A stretch of DNA of 26,960 nucleotides from Planctomycetota bacterium (GTDB lineage: Bacteria > Planctomycetota > GCA-002687715 > DRQF01): assembly GCA_036479435.1 (NCBI GenBank), contig JAZGFI010000023.1, positions 1 through 26,960 on the forward strand, written 5' to 3'. The notes under the pieces were generated by a model. That model saw nothing but the letters and a program-made list of their open reading frames with translations. It did not search any database and was not told the origin of the DNA. The position numbers were made by a program, and so were the translations under genes. Below are positions 5,354-26,478 of the stretch, piece after piece. Positions within the stretch are counted from its first letter, which is position 1; each line of letters opens with the position of its first letter.

Positions 5354-5527
5354 CGGCCCACCTTTTTCCAGAGGTCGGCCCACGGTGACGCCGCGAGGAG
5401 AGCATGGACCTTCAGGAACAGCCCCGGCACGCGCAAGGCGGCGTTCGGTTGAATTTGGTCGAGTGTGATCATGGACGAGCCCTCACGTATCGAATCCCCT
5501 GCCGCATCCTGTCGAAGAGGTTGGCCA

Positions 5528-5770
5528 TCAGGTCAAAGCCTCCAACTTCTCGAGGTCGAGCTTGGACTGCTCGAGCACGCCGACGAAGCAGTCCGCGCAG
5601 AAGCGCCGCGTTGCTGAGTGGGGCTTCTGGGGCTGCGGCACGTCGTAACAGTCCTCCCCTTTGGAGATCGGTTTCTTGCAGCGGCTGCACGGCGTTTCAC
5701 GCCCGCATGTTTCCTTGCGCGGGCGGCCGAGTGAGGAGCCGATGAGCGACGGCGTCTTACCTCTCGGCAT
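5528..5770 (-). CDS. Small Cys-rich putative zinc-binding protein (80 aa)
   Basis: MPRGK start overlaps the helicase 3' end; CSRC...C...FCADC motif; amphipathic C-terminal helix. Confidence 0.65.
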   Translation of the reverse strand: MPRGKTPSLIGSSLGRPRKETCGRETPCSRCKKPISKGEDCYDVPQPQKPHSATRRFCADCFVGVLEQSKLDLEKLEALT

Positions 5771-7787
5771 GCTGCACCTTCTTGATCTCGCGAACGAGTT
5801 GCTCAAGGACATCCGGGAGAAGGTCGATCGCTGCGGTGAACTCCTCGAACGTCCACTCCGGCCGCTTCTTGCCCTCCCCCACTCGCTTCGCGATGGCCCT
5901 GTTCACCATCATGAAGGCCGCGATGAAGTTGCTGATCGCCCCGATGTCGGGCTTGAGCTTGCGCGGAATCTCCACGCCTTCCGACTTCAGGTCCACGCGG
6001 TTGAGAAGGATCTTGGCCGTACGTTTTGACTGCTCGTCGAGTCGCCTCTTCGCTTCTTGCCACTGCCTCGCGGGGATCTTGCTGAATGGCTGTGCCGCCG
6101 CGGTGACCGCAGGACCTAACGCGTCAGAACGGCTCTTCTGAACCACCTGTTGGGCAAGCCGAGGATCGAGCCCTAACGCCTCGAGCTTCTTCTCAAGGTC
6201 GTGCTGGAGATCGGCGTCTTCGGCTGTCGCAAAGTCTTCTTCGAAGAGTTGATCGACGATCTCCCTTTGAACGACCATGTCCTCGCGAAGCTTCATGCGA
6301 GCGCTACCGTCAAGGACCTCCTTCGGCGGGTCAGGCTCCTCTCCGCCAGTCACCTCTTCCCAAAACTTCTGGTCGTCGTTCTCAAACAGCTTGAACTTAT
6401 TTAGGAGCTCGTCGAGGTTCATCCCGACGTGGGTCACGATGTGGCCGTAGTTGTCGGGGTGCGCTGGGTCGTTCTGAACCACGACGCGCAGGATGCGGCC
6501 GACGAACTGGATGTAGGGCGCGAGCGAACGGAAGGGCCGGAAGATCGCCGCAACGCTCAGTTTCGGGTGGTCAAACCCCTCCCCCAGCATCTGCACCTGA
6601 ACAATGCAGTCGAGGACACCGCTGTAGAGGTCGCGCATTACGTCCTCATTGGCCTTCTCGTCTTCCTCTTTGTCCTTGCTGCTGTGAACGATGGCGGCTT
6701 CGTAGCCCCGCTCTTGGTAGAGCGAGCGGATCCGCCGCGCGTGGTTGATAGAACAGGCGACGGCGATGATCTGGTGCTTGGTCCCGGTCTGGCGGAGCAG
6801 CTCGAGCTTCTCCAGGCTGTTGTCAACGATCGACACGTTGCACGGCTCCGAGAGAGCAACGCCTCGGCTGAACCACTCTTCCTCCTTCATCGCGAGAACT
6901 TCATCGAGGGTGAAGGTGCACTCCTCCCCCTTTAGCGTGAAGGTGAGCTCGCTCGGGGCTACGTAGCTGGCCTTCAGCTTCTTGACGTAGCCCTTGATGC
7001 TGGCACTCTTGAACGGGTAGCGAAAGATCAGCTCGCCCTCGAGCTCCTGCCGGTCGCTTCGAAATGGAGTTGCAGTCAGATTCGCGACCTTCGCGTTCGG
7101 GAACCGTGCGAAGACCCTCTGCCAACTCGCCGCGGCGCCATGGTGTGCCTCGTCGACGATGATCAGATCGAAGAAGTCATCGGCGAACTTCGTCAGCCAC
7201 TTGTCCGCGTTGGTGCCGAACTGCTGGATGTTGGTGAGGACGATGTGCGACTTCTCGCATACGGAGAGGTTGCCCGTGTCGAGCGTGCAGACGTAAGGCC
7301 CGCTCGTCATGTCCCGGGACTCCAACACACCACGCTGACGCCAGAAGCACTTCTGCCTATTGGTGATGTCGAAGGCCTTGAAGAGCTCATCTTTGATCGT
7401 GAGGTTCGGCGCGATCACGAGGACGCGGCCTTTGGCAATCCCAAACGGAAGGATGGCTGCGACACCGGATTTGCCACAGCCGACCGGGAGCTGGATCAGC
7501 GCCTTCTGGCCGCCGCGTTGGTAGTACGCCGCGGCCCGGGCGTGGGCCTCGCGCTGTGGATCGCGGAGGCCCTGATTGCCCTCGATGTTGGCCGGGGTGT
7601 CCTGGAAAAAGTCCTCGAGACGCTGGCTGGACTGCACCCAGTCGGCGAGCTCTGCGCGGTTGTACATCCACTTCTTCCCGACGCGCTTCGCGGGGAGACG
7701 ACCCTCTCGCGTGAGCTCGTAGAGCTTCGTCTTGCCTAAACCGAGGTATTCAGCGGCCTCGACTGTTCCAATCCACACGTCTTCCAT
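5757..7787 (-). CDS. Excisionase-type HTH fused to a DEAD/DEAH (ResIII-like) SF2 helicase
   Basis: N-terminal EAAEYLGLGKTKLYELTREGRLPAKRVGKKW (HTH_17); LRDPQ; PVGCGKS; IIVDEAHH; LTATPFRSD; MLGEGFDHP; QFVGRILR. Start ATG 7787 is supported by an extended -10. Confidence 0.9.
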   Translation of the reverse strand: MEDVWIGTVEAAEYLGLGKTKLYELTREGRLPAKRVGKKWMYNRAELADWVQSSQRLEDFFQDTPANIEGNQGLRDPQREAHARAAAYYQRGGQKALIQLPVGCGKSGVAAILPFGIAKGRVLVIAPNLTIKDELFKAFDITNRQKCFWRQRGVLESRDMTSGPYVCTLDTGNLSVCEKSHIVLTNIQQFGTNADKWLTKFADDFFDLIIVDEAHHGAAASWQRVFARFPNAKVANLTATPFRSDRQELEGELIFRYPFKSASIKGYVKKLKASYVAPSELTFTLKGEECTFTLDEVLAMKEEEWFSRGVALSEPCNVSIVDNSLEKLELLRQTGTKHQIIAVACSINHARRIRSLYQERGYEAAIVHSSKDKEEDEKANEDVMRDLYSGVLDCIVQVQMLGEGFDHPKLSVAAIFRPFRSLAPYIQFVGRILRVVVQNDPAHPDNYGHIVTHVGMNLDELLNKFKLFENDDQKFWEEVTGGEEPDPPKEVLDGSARMKLREDMVVQREIVDQLFEEDFATAEDADLQHDLEKKLEALGLDPRLAQQVVQKSRSDALGPAVTAAAQPFSKIPARQWQEAKRRLDEQSKRTAKILLNRVDLKSEGVEIPRKLKPDIGAISNFIAAFMMVNRAIAKRVGEGKKRPEWTFEEFTAAIDLLPDVLEQLVREIKKVQHAER

Positions 7788-7793
7788 GACCAA

Positions 7794-7802
7794 ACGATAG
7801 CA
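7794..7802 (-). promoter_or_regulatory. Extended -10 element (TGcTATCGT), probably a leaderless promoter for the helicase operon
   Basis: Minus strand reads TGCTATCGT-ttggtc-ATG; no Shine-Dalgarno. Confidence 0.5.
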
Positions 7803-7865
7803 AATGGCATCACGCGGTACCACTGTGTCGCGGGGGATTTTCCCAGGGATCCTCTGCCTGCGGAT

Positions 7866-9470
7866 CTATCCCATGGGGACAAGGTCGGAATTTGGCTGGT
7901 AGTCCTCGTCCTGCGCCCACCGACGGGCGTCCTTCTGGCAAAGCGAGATGTGGGCGCTCTCCCAACGTTCGAGCGTCCAGCCTTCCGGCAGGTGCCGCCT
8001 GGCACCCCTGAAGAGCTCCTGCGGAGTGCGGCCGGGGCAGGCCTTCTGGCAGCGCAGAACGATGGTTTCGTCCTCGGTGTAGTCCGGCATGGCGTTCTGG
8101 CGTTCTGGCCTGAACGAGCCTCCCCCATCACGGCTTCGTGTCGTCGGCCCATCCCTGAGCTCACGGAGCTGCGTTCGTGCCGTCTCCTCGTCAGCGATCG
8201 TGATGAACGCCCTTCGGTGCTTGGAGATCAGATTGAAGAACAGCGCAGGCGGGTTGGAGCCATTGCTCCGTGCCCGGTTGGCCAAGGCCAGGAAGTCCAG
8301 CTTCCCGCTCTCGCCCTCGAAGGTGAAGCCGAGCTCGAGGGCTTGGGGCCAGAGCTCGAGCAGAGCCTCGGGGCTCTTCAAGTCCTCTGCCGTGACATCG
8401 CGGATGTTCGGCCGGGTCGATCCCTTGCGGTGTGACGTCCTCCGTCTTGGGCCTTCTGGCCTTCCTTCCTTCGTGCAAACCCCAGATCGGTTTAGGGCGT
8501 TAGCCCTAAGCCTTCTGGTTTTAAGTTCCTTCGTAGAAGGAGAGATCTGTTTAGATGGGGTGTGCGACTGACCTGAGTTTTTGGCCGGAGGGGTGTGCGA
8601 TTGACCTGAGCCTCTCCCCTCCCCCACCGCGTCAGGGTCGGAGTTTTCCACAGCGTCATTCGCTGCGGCGTCAGGCTTGGCCGGAGCCCAATCGACGTTG
8701 ATCACGTCATGGGAGCCCCACTTGTTGAGCGCCCATTGCGGCGTCTCCACGGGCTTCAGCCAGCCGAGCTCGATCAAGTGCCGCCGTGCGGCGCGGATCG
8801 TGGCGAGATCGAACCCGAAGGTCTGGGCGACCCATGAGCAGCGGGTTCGACCGTCGGTCGTGTAGAGGCCGGTCTTCTTGCTCCAGAAGACGGAACGGAT
8901 CAAAGCGGCGATGATGAAGGCCGTCTCTGCAGGCCGGAAACCGGCCGCTAGGGCGCGCAGGGTGCGGCGCGGGACGGGAACTTTCCCTTTCGGGCGCGGG
9001 AGCGCGCTGAAGAAGGCCCAAAAACCTTCGAGATCGTCGGCGATGACGATCTGCTCTATGGAACTTGCGAAGGTGATTTCATGGGCCGTGATGGCGACCA
9101 GGCCGAGCTCTCTGAGCTGCTTGACGTCCGCCGATAGGTCGCGGTTCGCAGACTTCGAACCCCTACCCCCCACCAGAGCCTTGAGCTCTTGGAGTAGGAA
9201 GAGTGGCTCTGGGGCGTCGCCGTAGGCTCCTGAGCAAGCCTTGGCGGCTTCTCGCCGGGCAGCCATTTCATGGGCAGCGAAGTAGATCCGCTGTTGCCGC
9301 CGTGAGATGTGTCCGCTGCTTCGCAGCCAGGCCACGATTGCGAGTTCGTGGGTGGATATTGGTCGGTAGCCTCCGGCGATCGCCCGCTGTGTTGTGCGGG
9401 TGAAGTCAGTGGTTTGCTTCCGTCCCTGACCCCTCCCCGAGGTCTGTGGATGGATGATTGTCGTCGTCAA
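7866..9470 (-). CDS. Putative plasmid replication initiator (HTH-containing, family not recognised)
   Basis: 534 aa, divergent from parA; wHTH-like WVAQTFGFDLATIRAARRHLIELGWL; low-complexity linker with DNA repeats; GGAGG SD before a TTG start; no other Rep candidate on the circle. Confidence 0.65.
   Translation of the reverse strand: MTTTIIHPQTSGRGQGRKQTTDFTRTTQRAIAGGYRPISTHELAIVAWLRSSGHISRRQQRIYFAAHEMAARREAAKACSGAYGDAPEPLFLLQELKALVGGRGSKSANRDLSADVKQLRELGLVAITAHEITFASSIEQIVIADDLEGFWAFFSALPRPKGKVPVPRRTLRALAAGFRPAETAFIIAALIRSVFWSKKTGLYTTDGRTRCSWVAQTFGFDLATIRAARRHLIELGWLKPVETPQWALNKWGSHDVINVDWAPAKPDAAANDAVENSDPDAVGEGRGSGQSHTPPAKNSGQSHTPSKQISPSTKELKTRRLRANALNRSGVCTKEGRPEGPRRRTSHRKGSTRPNIRDVTAEDLKSPEALLELWPQALELGFTFEGESGKLDFLALANRARSNGSNPPALFFNLISKHRRAFITIADEETARTQLRELRDGPTTRSRDGGGSFRPERQNAMPDYTEDETIVLRCQKACPGRTPQELFRGARRHLPEGWTLERWESAHISLCQKDARRWAQDEDYQPNSDLVPMG
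8490..8652. other. Candidate intragenic replication origin (AT-richer patch, two 21-bp iterons, DnaA box)
   Basis: GGGGTGTGCGA(C/T)TGACCTGAG at 8557-8577 and 8590-8610; TTTTCCACA at 8644-8652; AT-richer 8490-8556. Confidence 0.5.
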
Positions 9471-9677: not shown

Positions 9678-9819
9678 GTATCTAAGGGCGTCTTGGGTCC
9701 GTGCGCGCCTCCGCTGATCTGTGGTCCCCTGCCGAATGCTGAACGCGCCGACAAATGGGGTGCAGGGAATTCCTGCAAGCCCAAGATGTAGGGATTCTTC
9801 AGCTCAATCAAGTCTCGTG

Positions 9820-9825
9820 ATTATA
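9820..9825 (-). promoter_or_regulatory. Perfect -10 box (TATAAT) pointing toward rep
   Basis: ATTATA on the + strand. No consensus -35; that position is covered by the 34-bp palindrome. Confidence 0.4.
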
Positions 9826-9833
9826 CGGGTGGT

Positions 9834-10070
9834 GCGTTTTAGCGTTCTGGCCAGAACGCTAAAACGCCATCTTGGAATGGCCAGAACGCGTTCTGGCGTA
9901 AATGGTCTGGCTATTACGCCAGAACGCCCATTTCTGTGGGTAACCAGAAACAGGGCGTTGACCGGCGGTTTTGAGGCCGTTAGGGTGTTTCTGTCTGGCG
10001 AGAACGCTAAAACGCTAAAACGCCACCTTGAGATGGCCAGAACGCGTTCTGGCGTCTATATTCTGGCCAT
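9834..10070. repeat. Cluster of GCCAGAACGC/AAAACGC motifs in direct and inverted arrangement (parS-like or iteron/operator array)
   Basis: 34-bp perfect palindrome at 9834-9867; 18-bp palindrome GCCAGAACGCGTTCTGGC at 9880-9897 and 10036-10053; ~45-bp imperfect direct repeat (9855-9899 vs 10011-10055); single copy at 9918. Confidence 0.85.
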
Positions 10071-10111
10071 AACGGGATCATTCGACCCCAAAAAACCTGT
10101 GGAGAAGTGAC

Positions 10112-13274: not shown

Positions 13275-13709
13275 ATGCAGCAAGAGATCCCCCAACAGAT
13301 CGCAGAGGACACGCTTCGCCGCGCCCGTGCGCTGCTAGAGCAGCCCGGACCGGACGCTAAGGCCGTCCAGGGGGCCAGAGAGAGCGTTCAGGCCTTGGCT
13401 CCGACTATCGGCGCGGCGGCCGTCAAAGACGCCCTGCGGGCGATGGAGGGGGCCGATCGACAGCTTCGAGAGCACAGGCTCCGCGAGCTCGGCGACGCCC
13501 TTGCCTCAGCCCTCAAACCCCTCGGCCTTCGCCTCGACGTCCACGTCCTCAAGCGTCAGCCGCGCAAGCGCAGCGCGAAGCCGGCTGCCCCCCAGGTAGC
13601 AGAGCAGGCGAGCGCGATGATGGGGGGGGAGAGCGCAAAGCCCACACCGACCGCGACCGAAGAGCCCGGTGAGCGAAGCTGCTTCCTCGGGCGGAGGAAG
13701 GCTCAATGA
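13275..13709 (+). CDS. Hypothetical helical protein, first gene of the operon
   Basis: Strong SD; ATGA overlap with the next gene. Confidence 0.75.
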   Translation: MQQEIPQQIAEDTLRRARALLEQPGPDAKAVQGARESVQALAPTIGAAAVKDALRAMEGADRQLREHRLRELGDALASALKPLGLRLDVHVLKRQPRKRSAKPAAPQVAEQASAMMGGESAKPTPTATEEPGERSCFLGRRKAQ

Positions 13710-14452
13710 AGCGCCCGATCTCCGTCTCTCGCGACGAGAGCGCCAAAGCGCTCACGGCACGTTGGATTCTTGTGCTGTTGTTGGCGCTCTTCGCCTCCGG
13801 CTGGTTCTACCACTCCTTCACGAGTGGGGATCGAAGCGGGCAAGACCTCATTTCGTTCATCTTGCTGGGTTTCGTCTACGGACTGCTGCTTGCGGCCTGG
13901 GGCCTGCGCGAACTACTTCGCGAGAAGCACCGCTTCGAGAGACTGTGTAGTGAGCTCAAAGGGGTAGAGCTCGGTGCGTTCCTGGCGGAGCGAGAAGGGC
14001 AACCAGGGCCGCTGCTCGCGTTGCTGCGCAAGCTCGATATGCAGGCGCGTCGCAGCCCTAACGCTGTTGATGCTGCGACGCTGATTTCGTTGCTTCACCG
14101 GCGGCTAAGCCGGACGGCGAAGCTCGTTCAGCGCGTTGGTGTTCTGCTGGTTGCGGGCGGGATGATCGGGACCTGCATCGGGATCGGGGGGATGCTCAGC
14201 GGCCTCACCGAAGTCGTCGGCTCATCGGATGGGAAAGGGGGACCGGAGTTCATGCAGGGCCTCTTCGCTCCGCACGGGGGCCCCCTATCCGCTTTGGCCA
14301 GCGCCTACAACACGACGTTGCTCGGCATTGGGTGCGGCGGGGTGGTTCTGCGCGCGCTTTCAAACGTTCTCCAGGACGGCGTCGACGTCCTTGCGGATCG
14401 GTACGAGGAGTTCATCTGCGTCAATTGCCGCCCGGCCTTCGGCAAGTCATGA
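13706..14452 (+). CDS. MotA/TolQ/ExbB proton-channel family protein
   Basis: Two N-terminal TM helices and a cytoplasmic region, then GMIGTCIG and ALASAYNTTLLG, matching the family GxxGTxxG...AxxTTxxG signature. Confidence 0.8.
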   Translation: MKRPISVSRDESAKALTARWILVLLLALFASGWFYHSFTSGDRSGQDLISFILLGFVYGLLLAAWGLRELLREKHRFERLCSELKGVELGAFLAEREGQPGPLLALLRKLDMQARRSPNAVDAATLISLLHRRLSRTAKLVQRVGVLLVAGGMIGTCIGIGGMLSGLTEVVGSSDGKGGPEFMQGLFAPHGGPLSALASAYNTTLLGIGCGGVVLRALSNVLQDGVDVLADRYEEFICVNCRPAFGKS

Positions 14453-15501
14453 GCCGCACCCGAACGAACACCCGCGAAGACGACGACGAAGGCATCTTCA
14501 ACGACGTCCTCTTCTGCACGATCGGCGTCGTGCTCTTGCTCCTGGTCGTTGCCCTTGTGCAAGTCGGCGTGCCCGAAGTCGCGAAGGGTGAACTCGAAGC
14601 GATGAATGGTGAGCTCGAGGCAATGAAGTCGCACCTCGTGGTCGAACACAGAGCACTCATCGCCGCCCAAGACGCAGCGGAGCAAGCGCAGCGACACAGT
14701 GCCGAGCTCACGCGCTCCCTTGATGATGAACGCGTGGCACGAGAAGGCCAGCTGCAAGCGAATGCGACGCTGTCTCGCCTTCTCGATGCTCAAGGTCGGG
14801 AGAGCAAGCGCCAGCAGCAAGCAGCCAAAGACGCCAAGATTATCCAACGCGATCTCGAGTTCCGCGACACGGACGTCGTGCTGTGTCTTGACGGCACCGC
14901 TTCGATGAAGGCGCGCCTGGAGACACTCCAAACAGGCGTATTGGCACTGAGCGAGATCAGCGCACGGCTTGTGAAGATCCGCGTCGGCGTCGTTATCTAC
15001 AGCGGTCGAGGCGTTCTCGAGTTCCCTCTGACGGAGATCGGCCCAACGGTAGACGGCAAACCAAGCGAGGGAATGAAGAAGCTCCGGGAGTTCATGGAAC
15101 TCCACGCGATTGCAGTGGAGGGACATGCATACGTCGAAGCCGGTGTGAACGCTGCTCTCGCCATGTTCGGTGCGCGCAGAAACGGCACCAGGCAACACCT
15201 TGTGGTGATGGGGGACATGGACCCGCTCGAGGCACACGGCGACGACACGGCAGGGGGAGACGCAAGCGCTCTGCGCGTGATCGCGAGCGTGCAGGAGTTC
15301 GCTCAACGCTACGAGGACACGGGCGTCTTGTCGCTGTTCACCGCGAACGGACGGCACACAAGGGACACAAATCAGCGCATCGCGCGCTTCTTCGAGGCAC
15401 TTGCGAGCAGAGGCAAGCGATCGAAATACACGAACGACCTTTCACAACTCACGGCGACGACCGTCGCAGCCCTCTTCACCCAACAAAGGAGAACCCAATG
15501 A
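14449..15501 (+). CDS. ExbD/MotB-like TM anchor plus coiled coil plus von Willebrand A (vWA) domain protein
   Basis: Likely start is ATG 14449 (ATGA overlap); TM IFNDVLFCTIGVVLLLLVV with Asp; coiled coil; MIDAS-like DVVLCLDGTASM, RVGVVIY, HLVVMGD. Confidence 0.8.
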   Translation: MSRTRTNTREDDDEGIFNDVLFCTIGVVLLLLVVALVQVGVPEVAKGELEAMNGELEAMKSHLVVEHRALIAAQDAAEQAQRHSAELTRSLDDERVAREGQLQANATLSRLLDAQGRESKRQQQAAKDAKIIQRDLEFRDTDVVLCLDGTASMKARLETLQTGVLALSEISARLVKIRVGVVIYSGRGVLEFPLTEIGPTVDGKPSEGMKKLREFMELHAIAVEGHAYVEAGVNAALAMFGARRNGTRQHLVVMGDMDPLEAHGDDTAGGDASALRVIASVQEFAQRYEDTGVLSLFTANGRHTRDTNQRIARFFEALASRGKRSKYTNDLSQLTATTVAALFTQQRRTQ

Positions 15502-16770: not shown

Positions 16771-18414
16771 ATGGCGAACCAGCTCCAGAACCAACAAGGC
16801 CGCTCTGGCCTGTTCCTGTGGTGCGTCGCCGCTCTCGCGGCGCTCGGCACAGCCCGTTTCTGGGCGACGGGTCAACGTGGCGACGATCAGGCCTGCTTGC
16901 TTGCGGCTCTGCTGGCGATCGTCACCGTTCGCAGCTCATGGTTGGGTCTCGTTGCACACGACCAAAAACGCCTCCTGAAGAGGCTTCGACAGACATCAAA
17001 GGAGAAAAGCACCGTGCATGGATCAAGCGGCTGGGCAACACGAAAAGACATCAAGGACGCAGGGCTGGAGAAGCCTGGCGGGATCTTTCTCGGCGAGTTC
17101 GAGGGCCGGGAGATCTCGTACAAATCCGATCTATCGATGACGATCCTCGGCCCTCCCGGGTCAGCGAAAACCACAGCCTTCGCCACTCAGTTTTTGCTCC
17201 GAACCGATCACGACCTCGTAGTTTGCAACGACCCGAAGCTCGAATTGTGGCTGGTCACGCACGCTGACCTTGATCGGCGCGGCTACCGGGTCTTGTTGAT
17301 CTCGGCCTGGTTTCAGAGCTTCATCGATCAGTTTGACGGCCGCATTCAAACTCACGACGACGGGTTTGATCCGTGCTCGTTCCTCGACCCGAACGATCCG
17401 TGCATCATCGACGACACGCGCCTTCTTGCGACGCTACTGATCCCACCGGTAAGCGGTGGGAAGAGCGACGCGACGGGTGATTTCTTCAACGACTTTAGTC
17501 GGTCGATCCTCACCGCCTTCTCGTTGCTGATCCTGTCCGAGAAAGGAAGAGTGACGTTGCCGGAACTCCGTTCGAGGATCTTCGCGTCGGAAGGGCAGAT
17601 CATGGAAGACATCGCCGCGATGCTGGCCTCGAGCGCCTTCTCTGGCGTGCTTGCGGAGGAGGGTTCACGCCTCTACTCGCCGAAGGTCAACGCGCCCAAG
17701 GAGTGGTCGGGCGGTCTCAGCGGAGCTATGCGCGCTCTCAAGAGTTTCGATGCGCACGGGCCGCTCGGTCAAAGCGTCCAGAAGGGTGGTGTGGACTTCC
17801 GAAAGCTCGGCGATCAGAAGACCGTCGTGTTCTTCGCGCAGCCGCCCGAGAAGATCGAGAGCCATGAGGGCTATGCCTCGATGGTGTTGGTCCTCGCGAT
17901 GGAGATGATCGCCAGGAACCGGCAGAAGAAGCGCTGCGTGTTCCTGCTCGATGAGCTCCAGAACCAGCCCTCGGCTCTCTTGCCTGTGCTGAAAGGGATC
18001 GCTCTCTACAGGGGCTCGGGCATTCAGTTCATCTGTTTGTTCCAATTCCTCGCTGCGCTCAAGCGCCACATCGGTGATAGCTGGCGCGAGTATCTCTCTG
18101 TTGATCTGTTTGTCTCCTTGGCTGTGCCTACGGACCCAGAGACAGCCGACATCATCTCGCGCCTTGCGGGGCAAAGCACGGTGCGCGGCACGTCCTACTC
18201 GAGCGACGCCGAGGGGCTTGCCGGAGGCGGCCTTGGCGTAGGTGTTGGATCGCAGGACGTCGCACGTGCGCTTCTCACCGCCGACGAAGCGCGCCGGATG
18301 GGTCGAGACGAGGCCTTGGTGTTCATGTCGAACCTGCCTCCGATGCGCATCAAGAAGCAGTCCTACTTGGACAACCCGAAGCTGCGCGCAGGGAGCAACC
18401 CCTACTATGAATGA
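16771..18414 (+). CDS. virD4: Type IV coupling protein, VirD4/TraG family
   Basis: Two N-terminal TMs; HGSSGWAT; Walker A GPPGSAKT; NDPKLEL; FDP; Walker B FLLDE; RALLTADEARRM. Confidence 0.92.
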   Translation: MANQLQNQQGRSGLFLWCVAALAALGTARFWATGQRGDDQACLLAALLAIVTVRSSWLGLVAHDQKRLLKRLRQTSKEKSTVHGSSGWATRKDIKDAGLEKPGGIFLGEFEGREISYKSDLSMTILGPPGSAKTTAFATQFLLRTDHDLVVCNDPKLELWLVTHADLDRRGYRVLLISAWFQSFIDQFDGRIQTHDDGFDPCSFLDPNDPCIIDDTRLLATLLIPPVSGGKSDATGDFFNDFSRSILTAFSLLILSEKGRVTLPELRSRIFASEGQIMEDIAAMLASSAFSGVLAEEGSRLYSPKVNAPKEWSGGLSGAMRALKSFDAHGPLGQSVQKGGVDFRKLGDQKTVVFFAQPPEKIESHEGYASMVLVLAMEMIARNRQKKRCVFLLDELQNQPSALLPVLKGIALYRGSGIQFICLFQFLAALKRHIGDSWREYLSVDLFVSLAVPTDPETADIISRLAGQSTVRGTSYSSDAEGLAGGGLGVGVGSQDVARALLTADEARRMGRDEALVFMSNLPPMRIKKQSYLDNPKLRAGSNPYYE

Positions 18415-19053: not shown

Positions 19054-19503
19054 ATGAAGAGCGAGACTACGAAGCCGAGAAAGCCCTGGCAGCGATGCGC
19101 ATGGCGGTGGAGTTCCGCAAAGCCTCGCGTGACGCCTTCGAGCGCTGAGGAATTTGACGCAAGCCGCCAATTCGTGCAACTATGGGCGATGGCGTTTGCA
19201 ATGAGACGAGACAACGAATTCGAGCACTGGCTTCAACCCTTTACGGGTGCGGTCATGCTGCCTGGATACCGTCGTCAGCTCCGCAAGACGACGCGCCTCT
19301 GGTTTGAGCTTTACTGGCAGTTGTTGGCTCTAGGGTTCACCGAACAACAACTCGCGGACCACGCCCTTGAGTGGCGATGGGTCTCAAAGCTGCCGGATGA
19401 TCTCGCCCTCGACCAAGCGGTCATGGATCTCGCACGTGAGTGGGGGATTGAGGTGCGGGACGAGTTCGACCCGTTCACCGAAGCCAACCATCCCCGGCAC
19501 TAG
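19054..19503 (+). CDS. Hypothetical protein
   Basis: Trp-rich helical ORF converging on the relaxase with a 4-bp stop overlap; start uncertain. Confidence 0.55.
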   Translation: MKSETTKPRKPWQRCAWRWSSAKPRVTPSSAEEFDASRQFVQLWAMAFAMRRDNEFEHWLQPFTGAVMLPGYRRQLRKTTRLWFELYWQLLALGFTEQQLADHALEWRWVSKLPDDLALDQAVMDLAREWGIEVRDEFDPFTEANHPRH

Positions 19504-20945
19504 CGCCCACGGTCTTCGTCTCGGCCTTCCTTGCGATCTTGGTCCCGCTGCTTCGCGGCTTCCCGCATCCGATCGAGGGCACTCAAGGCAGTCTTCGTCC
19601 GCTCGTCGGCCGCGATCATCTGAGCTCCGAAGCGTTTCTCCGGCGGCAGAGCCTCCATCGCCTTGCGGTGTTCTGTCCAGGCCTGCTCACGTTCAACCTT
19701 CCGTGTAGCCCACTTCTCGCGAAGGACAGCCGCTGCGGTGCGGTGCTTCAAGATCAGCTCAGCACGCTCACGAGTGAATCGATGGGTAAGGAGCGCTCTG
19801 TCGGCCTGCAGCTTCGCACGCTCAGCTTCAGCGGCACGGTCTCCGGCTGCACGTTGCCGTGCCGCTAGCTCACGCTCTTGACCCTTCTGCGCTTTCTCGA
19901 GCTGCATTTTGCGTGCGCCTCGAGACCACAGGACGTTGACGGGGGCCCGAAGCGAGAGCAACGCCTTCAGGGCGTTGATCGCCTGACCTGCGATGTGTTC
20001 TTCGCTGCGCTCGAAGGCTGTGGTTGCGACTTTGTGCTCGTAGTAGAGCGTGGCCCAGTCGTCCGTGAACGTGTTCCGAGCGCTGTGCGCCGCACGCGCG
20101 ATGCGCTCACCCGCGCCCTCACGGAGCTCCGCCTTGCGAAGCCTGTGAGCCTCTGAGAAGTCGACCCACTGCTGCTTCCTAGCGTCCCGTTCTTGCTTCG
20201 ATTGCTTGGCGAGCGCGGCGTCTTTCGCCCGCTGTTCCGTCCTGACCTCGAGGACAGGCGGTCGGTTGTCGTTCACGCCTGCTTCAAGCTCGTAGACGTC
20301 ACGAGGCGCGCGCTTCTGGCTCGGGACGCTCTCTCCGCGATCCCGCGCTGCGTTGTTGATCGCACGTTGGTCGACGATGATCCCACCGTTCTCCAACTCG
20401 TACTTCTCCGCCCATCTGCTGAGCATCTTGAAGTCATGCCCCGCAGGCAGCATGACGCCGTGTCCTGGATGGACACGGTTCACGACCACGTGAACGTGTG
20501 CGTTGTCGGTGTCTTCGTGCGACACCACGAGAACCTGGTGCTCACTCGCGAACTGATCCCGGGCCGCCACGCGCCCAGCTTTTTTATTCCTACCGCCCTT
20601 CTGCCCGGCCTTTTCACCGAGAACGGCAAGGGAACCGTTGACGGCCCGCATCATCTCTTCGCGGCTCACCTCCTGCCACTCAGCCCAGGAGAGTGTGTAG
20701 TGCAAGACGTGGTTCTTGGACTTCCTTCCGGCGTTCGAGATGCCCGCCTTGTCCTTCAAGCGGGCTTGATCGAGCGCCGTGGCTGCCATGACCTTGGCGG
20801 CCATCATGGGCCTACGTGTGGCGAGGTTCTGGGTCTCCGTCCAGCCCACGCGTTCGGGGTTCTCTTGGCCTTTGCTTCCCTCCATGAGGTAAGCCACGAG
20901 GCCCCGGAAGGACTTGCCTTGCTTGGTTTGAACGACACTAATCAT
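19500..20945 (-). CDS. Relaxase, MOBP/VirD2-like (relaxase/mobilisation nuclease domain)
   Basis: Motif I GKSFRGLVAYL (catalytic Tyr); motif II HYTLSW; HUH motif III HEDTDNAHVHVVVNRVHP; C-terminal coiled coil ending in a DRGR-type tail. Confidence 0.93.
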   Translation of the reverse strand: MISVVQTKQGKSFRGLVAYLMEGSKGQENPERVGWTETQNLATRRPMMAAKVMAATALDQARLKDKAGISNAGRKSKNHVLHYTLSWAEWQEVSREEMMRAVNGSLAVLGEKAGQKGGRNKKAGRVAARDQFASEHQVLVVSHEDTDNAHVHVVVNRVHPGHGVMLPAGHDFKMLSRWAEKYELENGGIIVDQRAINNAARDRGESVPSQKRAPRDVYELEAGVNDNRPPVLEVRTEQRAKDAALAKQSKQERDARKQQWVDFSEAHRLRKAELREGAGERIARAAHSARNTFTDDWATLYYEHKVATTAFERSEEHIAGQAINALKALLSLRAPVNVLWSRGARKMQLEKAQKGQERELAARQRAAGDRAAEAERAKLQADRALLTHRFTRERAELILKHRTAAAVLREKWATRKVEREQAWTEHRKAMEALPPEKRFGAQMIAADERTKTALSALDRMREAAKQRDQDRKEGRDEDRGR

Positions 20946-21483: not shown

Positions 21484-21506
21484 TTCCTTTCCTACTACCC
21501 CCGCAT

Positions 21507-21747
21507 CCAACGCCGGTTGCGTTGGCCGTCATTCAAGGGGTGGAGCCCTTGACGCGCATCCAAACCGCGCAGGGTTGGGCCAGATCCACCGAGGAAGCGG
21601 TGGCCGTATCCAAACCGGAGGGTTGGTCGTCGCCAGGGTCGAAACCCATGGCGCTCATCCAATCCGCGCAGGGTTGGTCCGCTCCACCGGGACACGGTGG
21701 CCTCATCCAATCGGGACGGTTGGCTGGTTCCAAGGGCAGCGCCCTTG
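21507..21747 (+). repeat. Array of ten short stem-loops with ~25-nt period and ~100-nt super-period
   Basis: Hairpins start at 21507, 21533, 21560, 21586, 21610, 21633, 21659, 21684, 21707 and 21731; eight are closed by CCA...TGG. Confidence 0.85.
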
Positions 21748-21860
21748 CCTGACAAAGCATCCCTCGAGGGATGCGACTCAGGCCGTCGCACATACAACCG
21801 GCAGCCGAAGGCTGACCCGGTGATGCGACGGGGCTTCGTTCGGGGGGGCAACCCCGACCA
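21747..21860. other. Probable oriT region
   Basis: Non-coding and upstream of mobC; 18-bp perfect palindrome GCATCCCTCGAGGGATGC (21757-21774) inside GCCTGA...TCAGGC; nic site not identified. Confidence 0.4.
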
Positions 21861-22351
21861 GACGGCCGCAGGCCGCCGCGCAGCGGTATTTTTCGGTACG
21901 ATAAATATATCTGGCTCCTCGTTGATACTCGGAATTTGCCATAACGGGCTTCATATGTCAAATAGGGGCACCTAAGGGCCATGATCCGCCGCCTGAACCG
22001 CCCTGCTGTCGGGCTCTTACAGGCCGCTCTACCACTCACGGTTGCCGTGGTGTGGACGCCAGGCACCCGACGACGCTCTTCGCGTCTTGGTCGGGTTCGC
22101 ACTGGCGAACTTGCTCCCCTCTGACGCCCTGCAGTCGCAGGTCGGGGGAGCTCCATGAACAGAGCACGTCCGCGCTAGCGACGTCCAGCCCCGCCGTTCC
22201 TGCCTCCTCCGAAGGCTGTGGACAAGCCCGCCCGATCTTCTCGCGGAAAGAGTGACGGTTCGAAGCTCGTCGTACGTTCAGTGATCTGGAAGCGGGGCAG
22301 TAGGAGAAAAAGACGGCCCACCAGGTGGCGGCAGACCGTCAATCCCGGGGC

Positions 22352-22771
22352 CTAGTGCTCCGAAGGCAGGTAGAGGGTCCAACCCGCGCCATTGAAGCCC
22401 GCCCAGATGTCGATTTCCCGCAGAGGGAAGTCGGTGAACGGGATCTCTTGCGTGATGAAAGGCGTCTCGCCCTTGTCGGCTCGTGCCGTCAGCACAGCGC
22501 CCGGGTCCGTCACCTTGAGGTGCCAGAACTGGAGGGTCTCCAGCCGCTCGTCCTGAGCGATCGCGGCCCGCATCTCCGGGCTCCCGAAGTAGCTGGCGAT
22601 CGCATCGATCAGCCAGAACGCCCCGGCTTCTTCCGCCAAGTAGTGAACGCCCTCGGTGTAGACGACGCTGCGACTGAACGGGTGCCGGATGAACTGTTCC
22701 GAGCCCGTGAAGCGCTGCAGGTTCTCGAGAAGCTGCTCGGGTGTGAGGGTTTCTGTTGGTTCGTTCGCCAT
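22352..22771 (-). CDS. DUF6876-like conserved hypothetical protein
   Basis: FTGSE, YTEGVHYLAEEAGAFWLIDAIAS, QEIPFTDFPL, LYLPSEH; AAGGAG SD before ATG 22771. Confidence 0.75.
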   Translation of the reverse strand: MANEPTETLTPEQLLENLQRFTGSEQFIRHPFSRSVVYTEGVHYLAEEAGAFWLIDAIASYFGSPEMRAAIAQDERLETLQFWHLKVTDPGAVLTARADKGETPFITQEIPFTDFPLREIDIWAGFNGAGWTLYLPSEH

Positions 22772-22785
22772 GGTTTCTCTCCTTC

Positions 22786-22893
22786 GTTGGCAGTTGATAT
22801 GCCTGGGAGAGGGCATGGCCTGAGCGAAGGCGAACAAGGGTTTGGCGCGGCCCACAGCGCAGCGAGGACTCGGGCCCTTGTGAGAACCGCGCC
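22786..22893 (-). promoter_or_regulatory. Structured upstream element, copy 1 (ssDNA-promoter/Frpo-like)
   Basis: Homologous to 26494-26608; stems ACAAGGG/CCCTTGT and GGCGCGG/CCGCGCC. Confidence 0.6.
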
Positions 22894-26217: not shown

Positions 26218-26478
26218 TTATGCAGCACCGCCCTTCTCGAGGTCAGTCTTGTCGGTTTGACGTAGATCGCTGACGCGGTCGTAGGCGCGGGTGGCGAGGT
26301 GCGCGATCCGAAGGAGCTCGGAACCGCTGAAACTGTCGCTGTCGTGGTAGTTCCCGCCGTCGTCCTTGTAGGTGCGGGTGAGACTGACGGTGTAGAAGGC
26401 GCCCTTCTCGCCGAAGTTGCTCCAGATCGTTGCCTTGAGGCTGCCGTCTCTGAGTGTGTCGATGGGTTTGTTTGTCAT
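26218..26478 (-). CDS. Small conserved protein, possible PC4-like ssDNA-binding fold (86 aa)
   Basis: KPIDTLRDGSLKATIWSN...FYTVSLTRTYKD..GNYHDSDSF...ELL; beta-strands plus C-terminal helix; AAAGGA SD before ATG 26478. Confidence 0.7.
   Translation of the reverse strand: MTNKPIDTLRDGSLKATIWSNFGEKGAFYTVSLTRTYKDDGGNYHDSDSFSGSELLRIAHLATRAYDRVSDLRQTDKTDLEKGGAA

Follow-up and report, generated by a model that had tools for sequence, protein, structure and literature searches.

Hairpins near the nick site (nic) are general among transfer origins (oriTs), as stated in the main text of an oriT survey (bioRxiv 10.1101/2024.01.30.577996). In RP4, the traJ-II motif is the oriT (PMC6206304, in part); the outer stem of the traJ-II consensus is laid out like that of the core described below (PMC2864571 supplement, in part), and the nick consensus of the MOBP class is (C/T)ATCCTG(C/T) (PMC3772185, in part). 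In most rolling-circle plasmids, the single-strand origin (sso) lies upstream of the nick, so that it is opened last; structure can matter more than sequence in such origins, and the upstream position has been argued to be risky for integrating elements (PMC4595007, in part). The mobilization cassette of pMV158 is flanked by ssoU and ssoA (PMC5737340, in part), and Frpo single-strand promoters sit in the leading region, ahead of genes (PMC11541004, in part).

The window analysed here, i.e. the whole stretch of DNA of 26,960 nucleotides, carries an array of ten short hairpins between mobC and a predicted nick. Compared with the systems above (the oriT survey by its main text), the locus is a MOBP-type transfer origin extended by hairpin modules, most likely acting as DNA. 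In the literature covered, which includes few subscription journals, no description of the hairpin array or of its oriT family was found, and Planctomycetes and Alphaproteobacteria are absent from the main text of the survey (10.1101/2024.01.30.577996).

The hairpin array and the predicted transfer origin

The 27 proteins of the plasmid that were scanned include ParA, a coupling protein, a relaxase, a MobC-like protein, an integrase, a FitA/PIN pair and restriction-modification proteins, and no mating-pair-formation families were found among them (Table 1). The window MobC is 44% identical to the annotated MobC of plasmid CP036288 and has a duplicated ribbon-helix-helix segment, both copies of which are matched by the 125-aa MobC of CP036288; long MobC proteins (172-203 aa) also occur in the related loci L008, L010 and L011.

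Table 1 Features of the mobilizable plasmid and of its predicted transfer region (positions in the window).
Feature	Position	Strand	Remarks
Entire circular contig, mobilizable plasmid	1-26960		127-nt terminal repeat
Type IV coupling protein	16771-18414	+	PF02534, E 1e-32
Relaxase, MOBP type	19500-20945	−	PF03432; homologous plasmid CP036288 typed MOBP by PLSDB
mobC/NikA-like gene, 181 aa	20938-21483	−	PF21983, E 7e-5, below cut-off
Shine-Dalgarno-like tract ahead of mobC	21484-21492	−	
Ten-hairpin array	21507-21747	+	period ~25 nt; unit AT-[CCA(A/G)...loop...TGG]-YCG-NN; ~99-101-nt internal duplication
Array hairpins 1-5	21507-25, 21533-52, 21560-78, 21586-603, 21610-26	+	
Array hairpins 6-10	21633-51, 21659-77, 21684-700, 21707-23, 21731-47	+	
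Further hairpin (21757-21774) and long interrupted stem (21785-21829)	21757-21829	+	predicted fold; C[GAA]G triloop in the long stem; joins array to oriT core
oriT-proximal hairpin	21840-21857	+	relatives hold an array-type unit at the same position; 5/6 pairs changed on both sides
oriT core	21858-21914	+	CCAGA (21858-62) pairs with TCTGG (21910-14); traJ-II/RP4-like junction
Two small hairpins inside outer stem of core	21863-75, 21876-86	+	
nic-proximal inverted repeat inside outer stem of core	21887-907	+	
Predicted nick region	21907-21915	+	predicted cut between 21914 and 21915
Predicted sigma70-type mob promoter	21933-21961	−	−35 at 21956-61, −10 at 21933-38; reads via core and array to mobC

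Elsewhere on the plasmid, a second cluster of repeats and palindromes (9760-10090), with repeated GCCAGAACGC / TTCTGGC and AACGCTAA words, lies between a putative replication gene and parA and likely comprises partition or replication sites. A 534-aa protein without a Pfam match (7866-9470, − strand), divergent from parA and with Atlas neighbours that have helix-turn-helix families, is the probable replication initiator. A MotA/ExbB-like gene followed by a VWA-domain gene occupies 13706-15501 (+ strand), and a DUF2726 region spans the assembly junction of the plasmid, with a second copy (78-85% identical) at about 3100-3590 of contig C242 of the host genome, G000.

Each of the ten stem-loops that the original prediction placed between mobC and the probable oriT was located with its arm pair where claimed; GGA was recounted in five of the ten loops, and the proposed repeated unit of ~100 nt was recovered as a ~99-nt repeat. 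The stem positions all stood, with two corrections: there is an A·G mismatch in each of hairpins 3 and 5, and an A is bulged out in hairpin 6. The array is not a chance product: under one hairpin rule, a single one of 43,265 overlapping 250-nt windows of the host genome holds at least 8 hairpins, namely the array, with 10, the runners-up being three windows with 7. The array is single-copy, at one locus in this genome, and the structured tract extends beyond 21747, reaching the oriT core through further hairpins. The excess of folding stability over shuffled sequences that had been anticipated (21495-21760) is weak for global RNA folding (z = −1.66 on the + strand and −1.26 on the − strand) and clear for short-range folding with a span of at most 30 (z = −3.8 and −2.7 for RNA and −5.3 and −4.5 for DNA, + and − strand, respectively). 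A search of the array region against Rfam gave no meaningful match, either at gathering scores or at E ≤ 10; RF01760 (traJ-II), likewise, had no cmscan match at the gathering score or up to E 10. As proposed, the array is not a CRISPR: its linkers are conserved 6-8-nt words and its stems are variable, no cas family was found among the 27 plasmid proteins, and no Rfam CRISPR repeat matched.

The inverted repeat of the core lies immediately 5' of TATCTGG. Of the 145 related loci with enough upstream DNA for the search, 100 had a nic-like motif among the matches listed, 355-1010 nt upstream of the relaxase and on the strand opposite to it, a count that takes in the window and some duplicate records; later analyses refer to the motif-bearing loci. 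The partner word of the outer stem is present and predicted to pair in 74 of 77 intervals, the control stretch having the word in 7 of 78, and CAAGA replaces CCAGA in 7 of the 8 loci ending in TCTTG. The nick words of the family, ATCTGG-C or ATCTTG-C, are one or two changes away from the MOBP consensus. By analogy with this consensus, the relaxase is predicted to cut the + strand at 21914/21915; with this cut, the + strand would be the transferred strand and the array its trailing end, on the relaxase side, in agreement with the rule that relaxase genes usually lie in the lagging region (PMC11541004, in part). The orientation of the first gene beyond nic (33 vs. 31 loci) gave no confirmation of the transferred strand.

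Several genes adjoin nic on its far side. ArdC anti-restriction genes are close to the predicted nick in L091, L098 and L089; a DUF2958-RadC fusion is found directly beyond nic in L011 (1603-2691) and L092 (1890-2996), distant elements sharing a similar array; and in the window, a DUF6876 gene (22352-22855, − strand) lies just past nic, its cluster occurring in 10 loci, each with an interval of at least 315 nt, with kinship uncontrolled.

Related loci, structural selection and exchange of arrays

A blastn search of the region against PLSDB showed that the MOBP plasmid CP036288 (strain Pla133) and its near twin CP036297 have an array of this kind upstream of mobC. Alignment of 55 relaxases retrieved at least 79 metagenome loci and at least 77 genome loci; 13 loci in which the start rule found no mobC start were left out, and 84 distinct mobC-to-nic intervals remained. 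In at least 79 loci after dereplication, the mobC-to-nic interval measures 45-504 nt and holds 0-12 hairpins; these loci are kin, and locus counts overstate independence. The hosts of array loci are Planctomycetota, Alphaproteobacteria and others, and long arrays are also found on chromosomes (L096, L104, L105). Hairpin density is 2.2 per 100 nt in the mobC-to-nic gap vs. 0.61 on the far side of nic. Across the family, array units share the feet AT-CCA…TGG-YCG, a period of 23-27 nt and recurring unit types.

In a quick tree of 78 relaxases, for which the careful search is unfinished, long arrays fall mostly in a 59-row clade (support 99), within which the array was lost in L027, L029 and L113 and is shortened in L033 and L028; intervals of 45-150 nt prevail in the remaining 19 rows. 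Relatives with intervals of 45-84 nt and no array (L043, L041, L113, L029 and L027) keep an intact oriT core, and the existence of array-less relatives indicates that the array is dispensable in some settings. A primase fusion making up for array loss was considered and rejected, as a scan of 24 proteins, either neighbours or long relaxases, gave no primase family. L113 carries, shortly downstream of its relaxase, a HamA gene followed by a DEAD-box helicase gene (5406-9031), a Hachiman-like defence pair. Roseobacter-group and Agrobacterium plasmids typed as non-mobilizable (L164, L167, L165) have a minimal core with a variant nick word and lack the array.

Of 401 genomes of the phylum, two (G000 and G397) had a match to the pattern of a single unit; of 150 searched with a covariance model of the core, two had matches, G000 and, at two places, G137. 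All these matches adjoin mobC and a relaxase, and no orphan arrays or cores lacking a relaxase were found in the genomes and plasmids searched; the viral contigs searched contained no relaxase relative and no match to the unit pattern. In G137, two related elements coexist (on contigs C5 and C6; L173 and L171), each with its own array, mobC and relaxase.

The idea that structure, rather than sequence, is preserved by selection is borne out by compensatory changes in the array hairpins of relatives next to related relaxases. Among three close arrays (the window, L008 and L010), 11 of 81 pairs, in a structure taken from the window, changed on both sides (shuffle mean 4.0; 0/500). Among 26 distinct copies of one unit type, chosen by a pattern favouring pairing, 5 of 7 pairs changed on both sides, and so did 13 of 19 pairs in the oriT core and its adjacent hairpin. 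Contigs of a related strain, which cover the hairpin tract in part, contain two substitutions (21545 and 21869), both in loops; contigs of four sequencing runs, with incomplete cover, showed no joints and no unit deletions. The array is real, conserved and under structural selection.

The Spearman correlation between array similarity and relaxase identity is 0.08 (1,176 pairs, 49 loci). Thus, L023 and L118 share 82% array identity over 255 nt, against 38% for their relaxases and 45% for MobC, and L011 and L092 share 86% over 165 nt, against 44% for their relaxases; the relaxases of L109 and L110, in turn, are 90% identical and their arrays are dissimilar. Since arrays resemble each other with little regard to their relaxases or MobC proteins, they seem to be passed on as cassettes, probably with a partner that is neither the cognate relaxase nor MobC. 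Polarity is fixed between arrays (1,018 same-strand vs. 4 opposite-strand matches), and internal duplication was found in 3 of 49 arrays. Among the 151 pairs with relaxases less than 50% identical, the level of 80 bits is attained by six same-host-group pairs, all of them Alphaproteobacteria, and by no cross-group pair; Planctomycetota array pairs score 17.4, below the cross-phylum pairs at 21.5. General tracking of hosts by arrays was rejected, the permutation result (p = 0.004) being driven by Alphaproteobacteria and the host labels being partly inferred; tuning of arrays to hosts is only partly supported.

An 86-aa protein (26221-26478, − strand; no Pfam or PHROG match), with four strands and a long helix, is common near array-family relaxases. 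Its model has a pLDDT of 90.6 and weak likeness to YbaB-, Pur-alpha- and PC4-type folds, with no Foldseek match at E ≤ 0.001 and a best VIA Z of 5.5. It was rejected as an array-specific partner: within 4-kb flanks, it occurs in 17 loci, all with intervals of at least 178 nt, but it is also found with short intervals: four of five genomes with short-interval loci have it, as do four of five with long-interval loci, and it is therefore no specific partner of the array.

Folded strand and proposed function

Wobble pairs and loops across the family favour the + strand as the folded one, as had been suggested for the window. With a strand-symmetric hairpin finder, there are 45 internal G·T vs. 10 A·C pairs on the + strand (8 vs. 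16 in the control) and 124 G…A vs. 9 T…C loops (5 vs. 14 in the control); the splits of individual loci toward the + strand are 31 vs. 9 for wobbles and 49 vs. 3 for loops, counts that kin inflate, and the strand comparison for GCGAA is 88 vs. 7. Shuffle z-scores were rejected as a strand test since they do not discriminate the strands: shuffle-normalised folding gave 27 of 53 loci with RNA parameters and 32 of 53 with DNA parameters, without strand separation, and the two strands of the window have z-scores of −5.42 and −5.45.

With respect to the molecule, GNA makes up 15 of 48 triloops among unique hairpins (the reverse form 1), and cGNAg accounts for 25 of the 47 triloops of core hairpins; on the + strand, GNRA makes up 5 and UNCG none of the 83 tetraloops. 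With GNA triloops common and RNA tetraloops rare, folded single-stranded DNA is likelier than RNA. Loops closed by G·A stabilise RNA as well. The array probably acts as single-stranded DNA on the transferred strand; among the options of the original prediction, a single-stranded DNA structure acting during transfer is the one supported, by strand bias, loop types and position by nic. As DNA, mini-hairpins with such loops far exceed their RNA counterparts in stability; they withstand nucleases, have little affinity for SSB and are found at the G4 and ssiA priming sites (PMC13037366, in part).

We tentatively propose, as a suggestion to which we give slightly less than even weight, that the array is a single-strand-origin-like site priming the second strand at the trailing end of the transferred strand. 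The relaxase would cut at the predicted position and lead the 5' end out, so that the array, within the last ~400 bases of the transferred strand, would be unwound and transferred last. The array would fold into short G…A-capped hairpins resisting SSB and nucleases, the 3' end of the transferred strand would fold back into the oriT junction, and a non-cognate factor (neither the relaxase nor MobC), probably the RNA polymerase or primase of the recipient, would start the second strand at the array, so that copying would begin only once transfer is nearly complete. Like sso/ssi sites, the array comprises several hairpins with a bias toward the strand that would become single-stranded, strand identity being taken from the predicted nic. 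The primosome-site and CS-6 words, which we take to be the known priming consensus of sso/ssi, are not conserved (8 and 0 of 53 long loci, respectively), and the literature consulted gave no confirmation of the primosome-site word.

It is possible, with a lesser probability, that the folded transferred strand is a runway for termination or protection without priming, which would slow unwinding or export, shield the trailing end from SSB and nucleases, or dock the relaxase, MobC or the coupling protein for the final cut and rejoining. The array is contiguous with the oriT junction and has the same strand bias and the same GNA loops, the fold-back of the 3' end is predicted in nearly all intervals, the oriT-proximal hairpin is an array-type unit, and mini-hairpins resist nucleases and SSB (PMC13037366, in part); however, the array does not track relaxase or MobC identity, which argues against these as specific partners, and the core is intact in relatives without the array. 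It is unlikely, if conceivable, that the array is an exchangeable single-stranded DNA hairpin cassette that is swapped independently of relaxase and MobC, is tuned to recipient or helper factors and sets the range of conversion and establishment. In a bolder version of this reading, the folded-back 3' end itself might prime synthesis into the array; in 56 of 75 loci, the base restored by such extension would be the first one beyond the nick.

A sigma70-like site beyond nic, pointing through the array toward mobC, is found in 33 of 78 loci compared with 5 of 478 control windows, and therefore the − strand of the array is probably the mob mRNA leader as well. Inside the array, a looser match on this strand occurs in 12 of 53 long loci. 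That the array exists as a structured 5' leader of the mobC-relaxase mRNA, controlling its stability or translation, we consider doubtful. The end of the array adjoins the ribosome-binding tract, CGNA loops (22 of 83 tetraloops) are UNCG on the mRNA strand, and traJ-II was originally proposed as a cis-regulatory RNA (PMC2864571 supplement, in part). On the − strand, however, the wobbles turn into A·C and the loops into U…C, the C-G closing pair is present in only 1 of the 22 UNCG loops, GNRA is absent (0/83), and for 43 of 53 loci this strand gives the weaker raw RNA fold.

The units could, quite improbably, be double-stranded or cruciform binding sites for MobC or for an accessory protein of a helper element, like the accessory repeats of other oriTs. 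Conservation of the outer half-sites and linkers with the 23-27-nt period, the invariant A-T pairs, the G fixed at one stem position and the duplicated DNA-binding segment of the window MobC are in line with such sites, whereas the inner stems change on both sides, spacing varies, the one-strand bias of wobbles and loops would be unexpected, and arrays do not follow MobC identity.

A separate + strand RNA, either a sponge of the CsrB/RsmZ type, as originally envisaged, or an antisense RNA against the mob leader, is very unlikely. The GGA loops of the window and the better folding of the + strand fit such an RNA, as does a terminator-like score for a hairpin followed by T residues (21872-87), but the T run forms one arm of the oriT inverted repeat. 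Moreover, ANGGA, the loop motif of CsrB/RsmZ sponges, is present in 3 of 365 unique loops, GAA loops (116) are twice as common as GGA loops (57), no CsrA (PF02599) turned up in the host assembly, which is 92% complete, Rfam gave no match, and a promoter-like site for a + strand RNA ahead of the array was found in 1 of 53 long loci, which disfavours a discrete structured RNA from this strand. Equally remote is the explanation of the array as a largely neutral by-product, in which recombination close to the nick would have duplicated and shuffled oriT-proximal hairpins, for which the variable copy number (0-12), the repeated loss and the internal duplications (3/49) speak, against the compensatory changes in orthologous hairpins, the fixed polarity and the confinement of the related strain's two tract substitutions to loops.

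Implications and comparison with known systems

The finishing of the transferred strand and the making of its second strand are poorly defined for mobilizable elements without a primase. The array family constitutes a natural series of 0-12 hairpins on one oriT core and includes the cultured carriers Engelhardtia mirabilis Pla133, Labrenzia sp. PHM005 and Sphingobium AntQ-1, so that a trailing-end role is directly testable. It serves to define an oriT family of Planctomycetota and Alphaproteobacteria. Of 18 plasmids carrying a related relaxase, 13 are typed as non-mobilizable in PLSDB. The array family also calls for caution, in that covarying, RNA-like hairpin arrays next to relaxases may be DNA. 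If the cassette reading above is true, the swapped cassette would act as a modular determinant of host range, encoded in DNA structure, and offer a first candidate for second-strand start in MOBP elements without their own primase.

Like the CsrB/RsmZ sponge RNAs, the array is made up of numerous short hairpins, some of whose loops contain GGA; it differs from them in the rarity of ANGGA, in a host assembly in which CsrA was not found and in the near absence of promoter-like sites on the + strand. REP/BIME elements beside RAYT (HUH) transposases are imperfect, strand-polar DNA hairpins with a conserved foot, next to a gene for an HUH-family nuclease. The array hairpins share all of these features but, unlike REP/BIME, are not dispersed: they occupy one locus in the host genome, and in the genomes searched, matches lie only beside array-family relaxases. 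Like Frpo promoters, the array is a folded element on the transferred strand (as predicted from nic); unlike Frpo, it is placed on the lagging side, that of the relaxase, with no gene between it and nic on that template.

Single-strand origins and initiation sites, such as the sso of rolling-circle plasmids, sso1 of ICEBs1, ssoU/ssoA of pMV158, the G4 origin and ssiA of RSF1010, resemble the array in having several stem-loops over 200-400 nt, a one-strand bias and mini-hairpin loops and, as in most rolling-circle plasmids (PMC4595007, in part), in a position upstream of the nick; sso1 of ICEBs1, unlike the array, is downstream of oriT. The array is set apart from these sites by its regular ~25-nt units, shared feet and exchangeable modules and by its occurrence in Gram-negative MOBP elements.

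With the oriT of RP4/RK2 (traJ-II, RF01760), the locus shares a multi-branch junction with the nick sequence in the outer stem, an inverted repeat next to nic, and an intergenic site directly upstream of a traJ/mobC-type gene and a PF03432 MOBP relaxase. It differs from the RP4 oriT in the nick word, which in the array family is ATCTGG or ATCTTG, not ATCCTG, and from the traJ-II consensus (about 115 nt, as given in the excerpted source) in that up to 12 modular hairpins lengthen the region to 500 nt.
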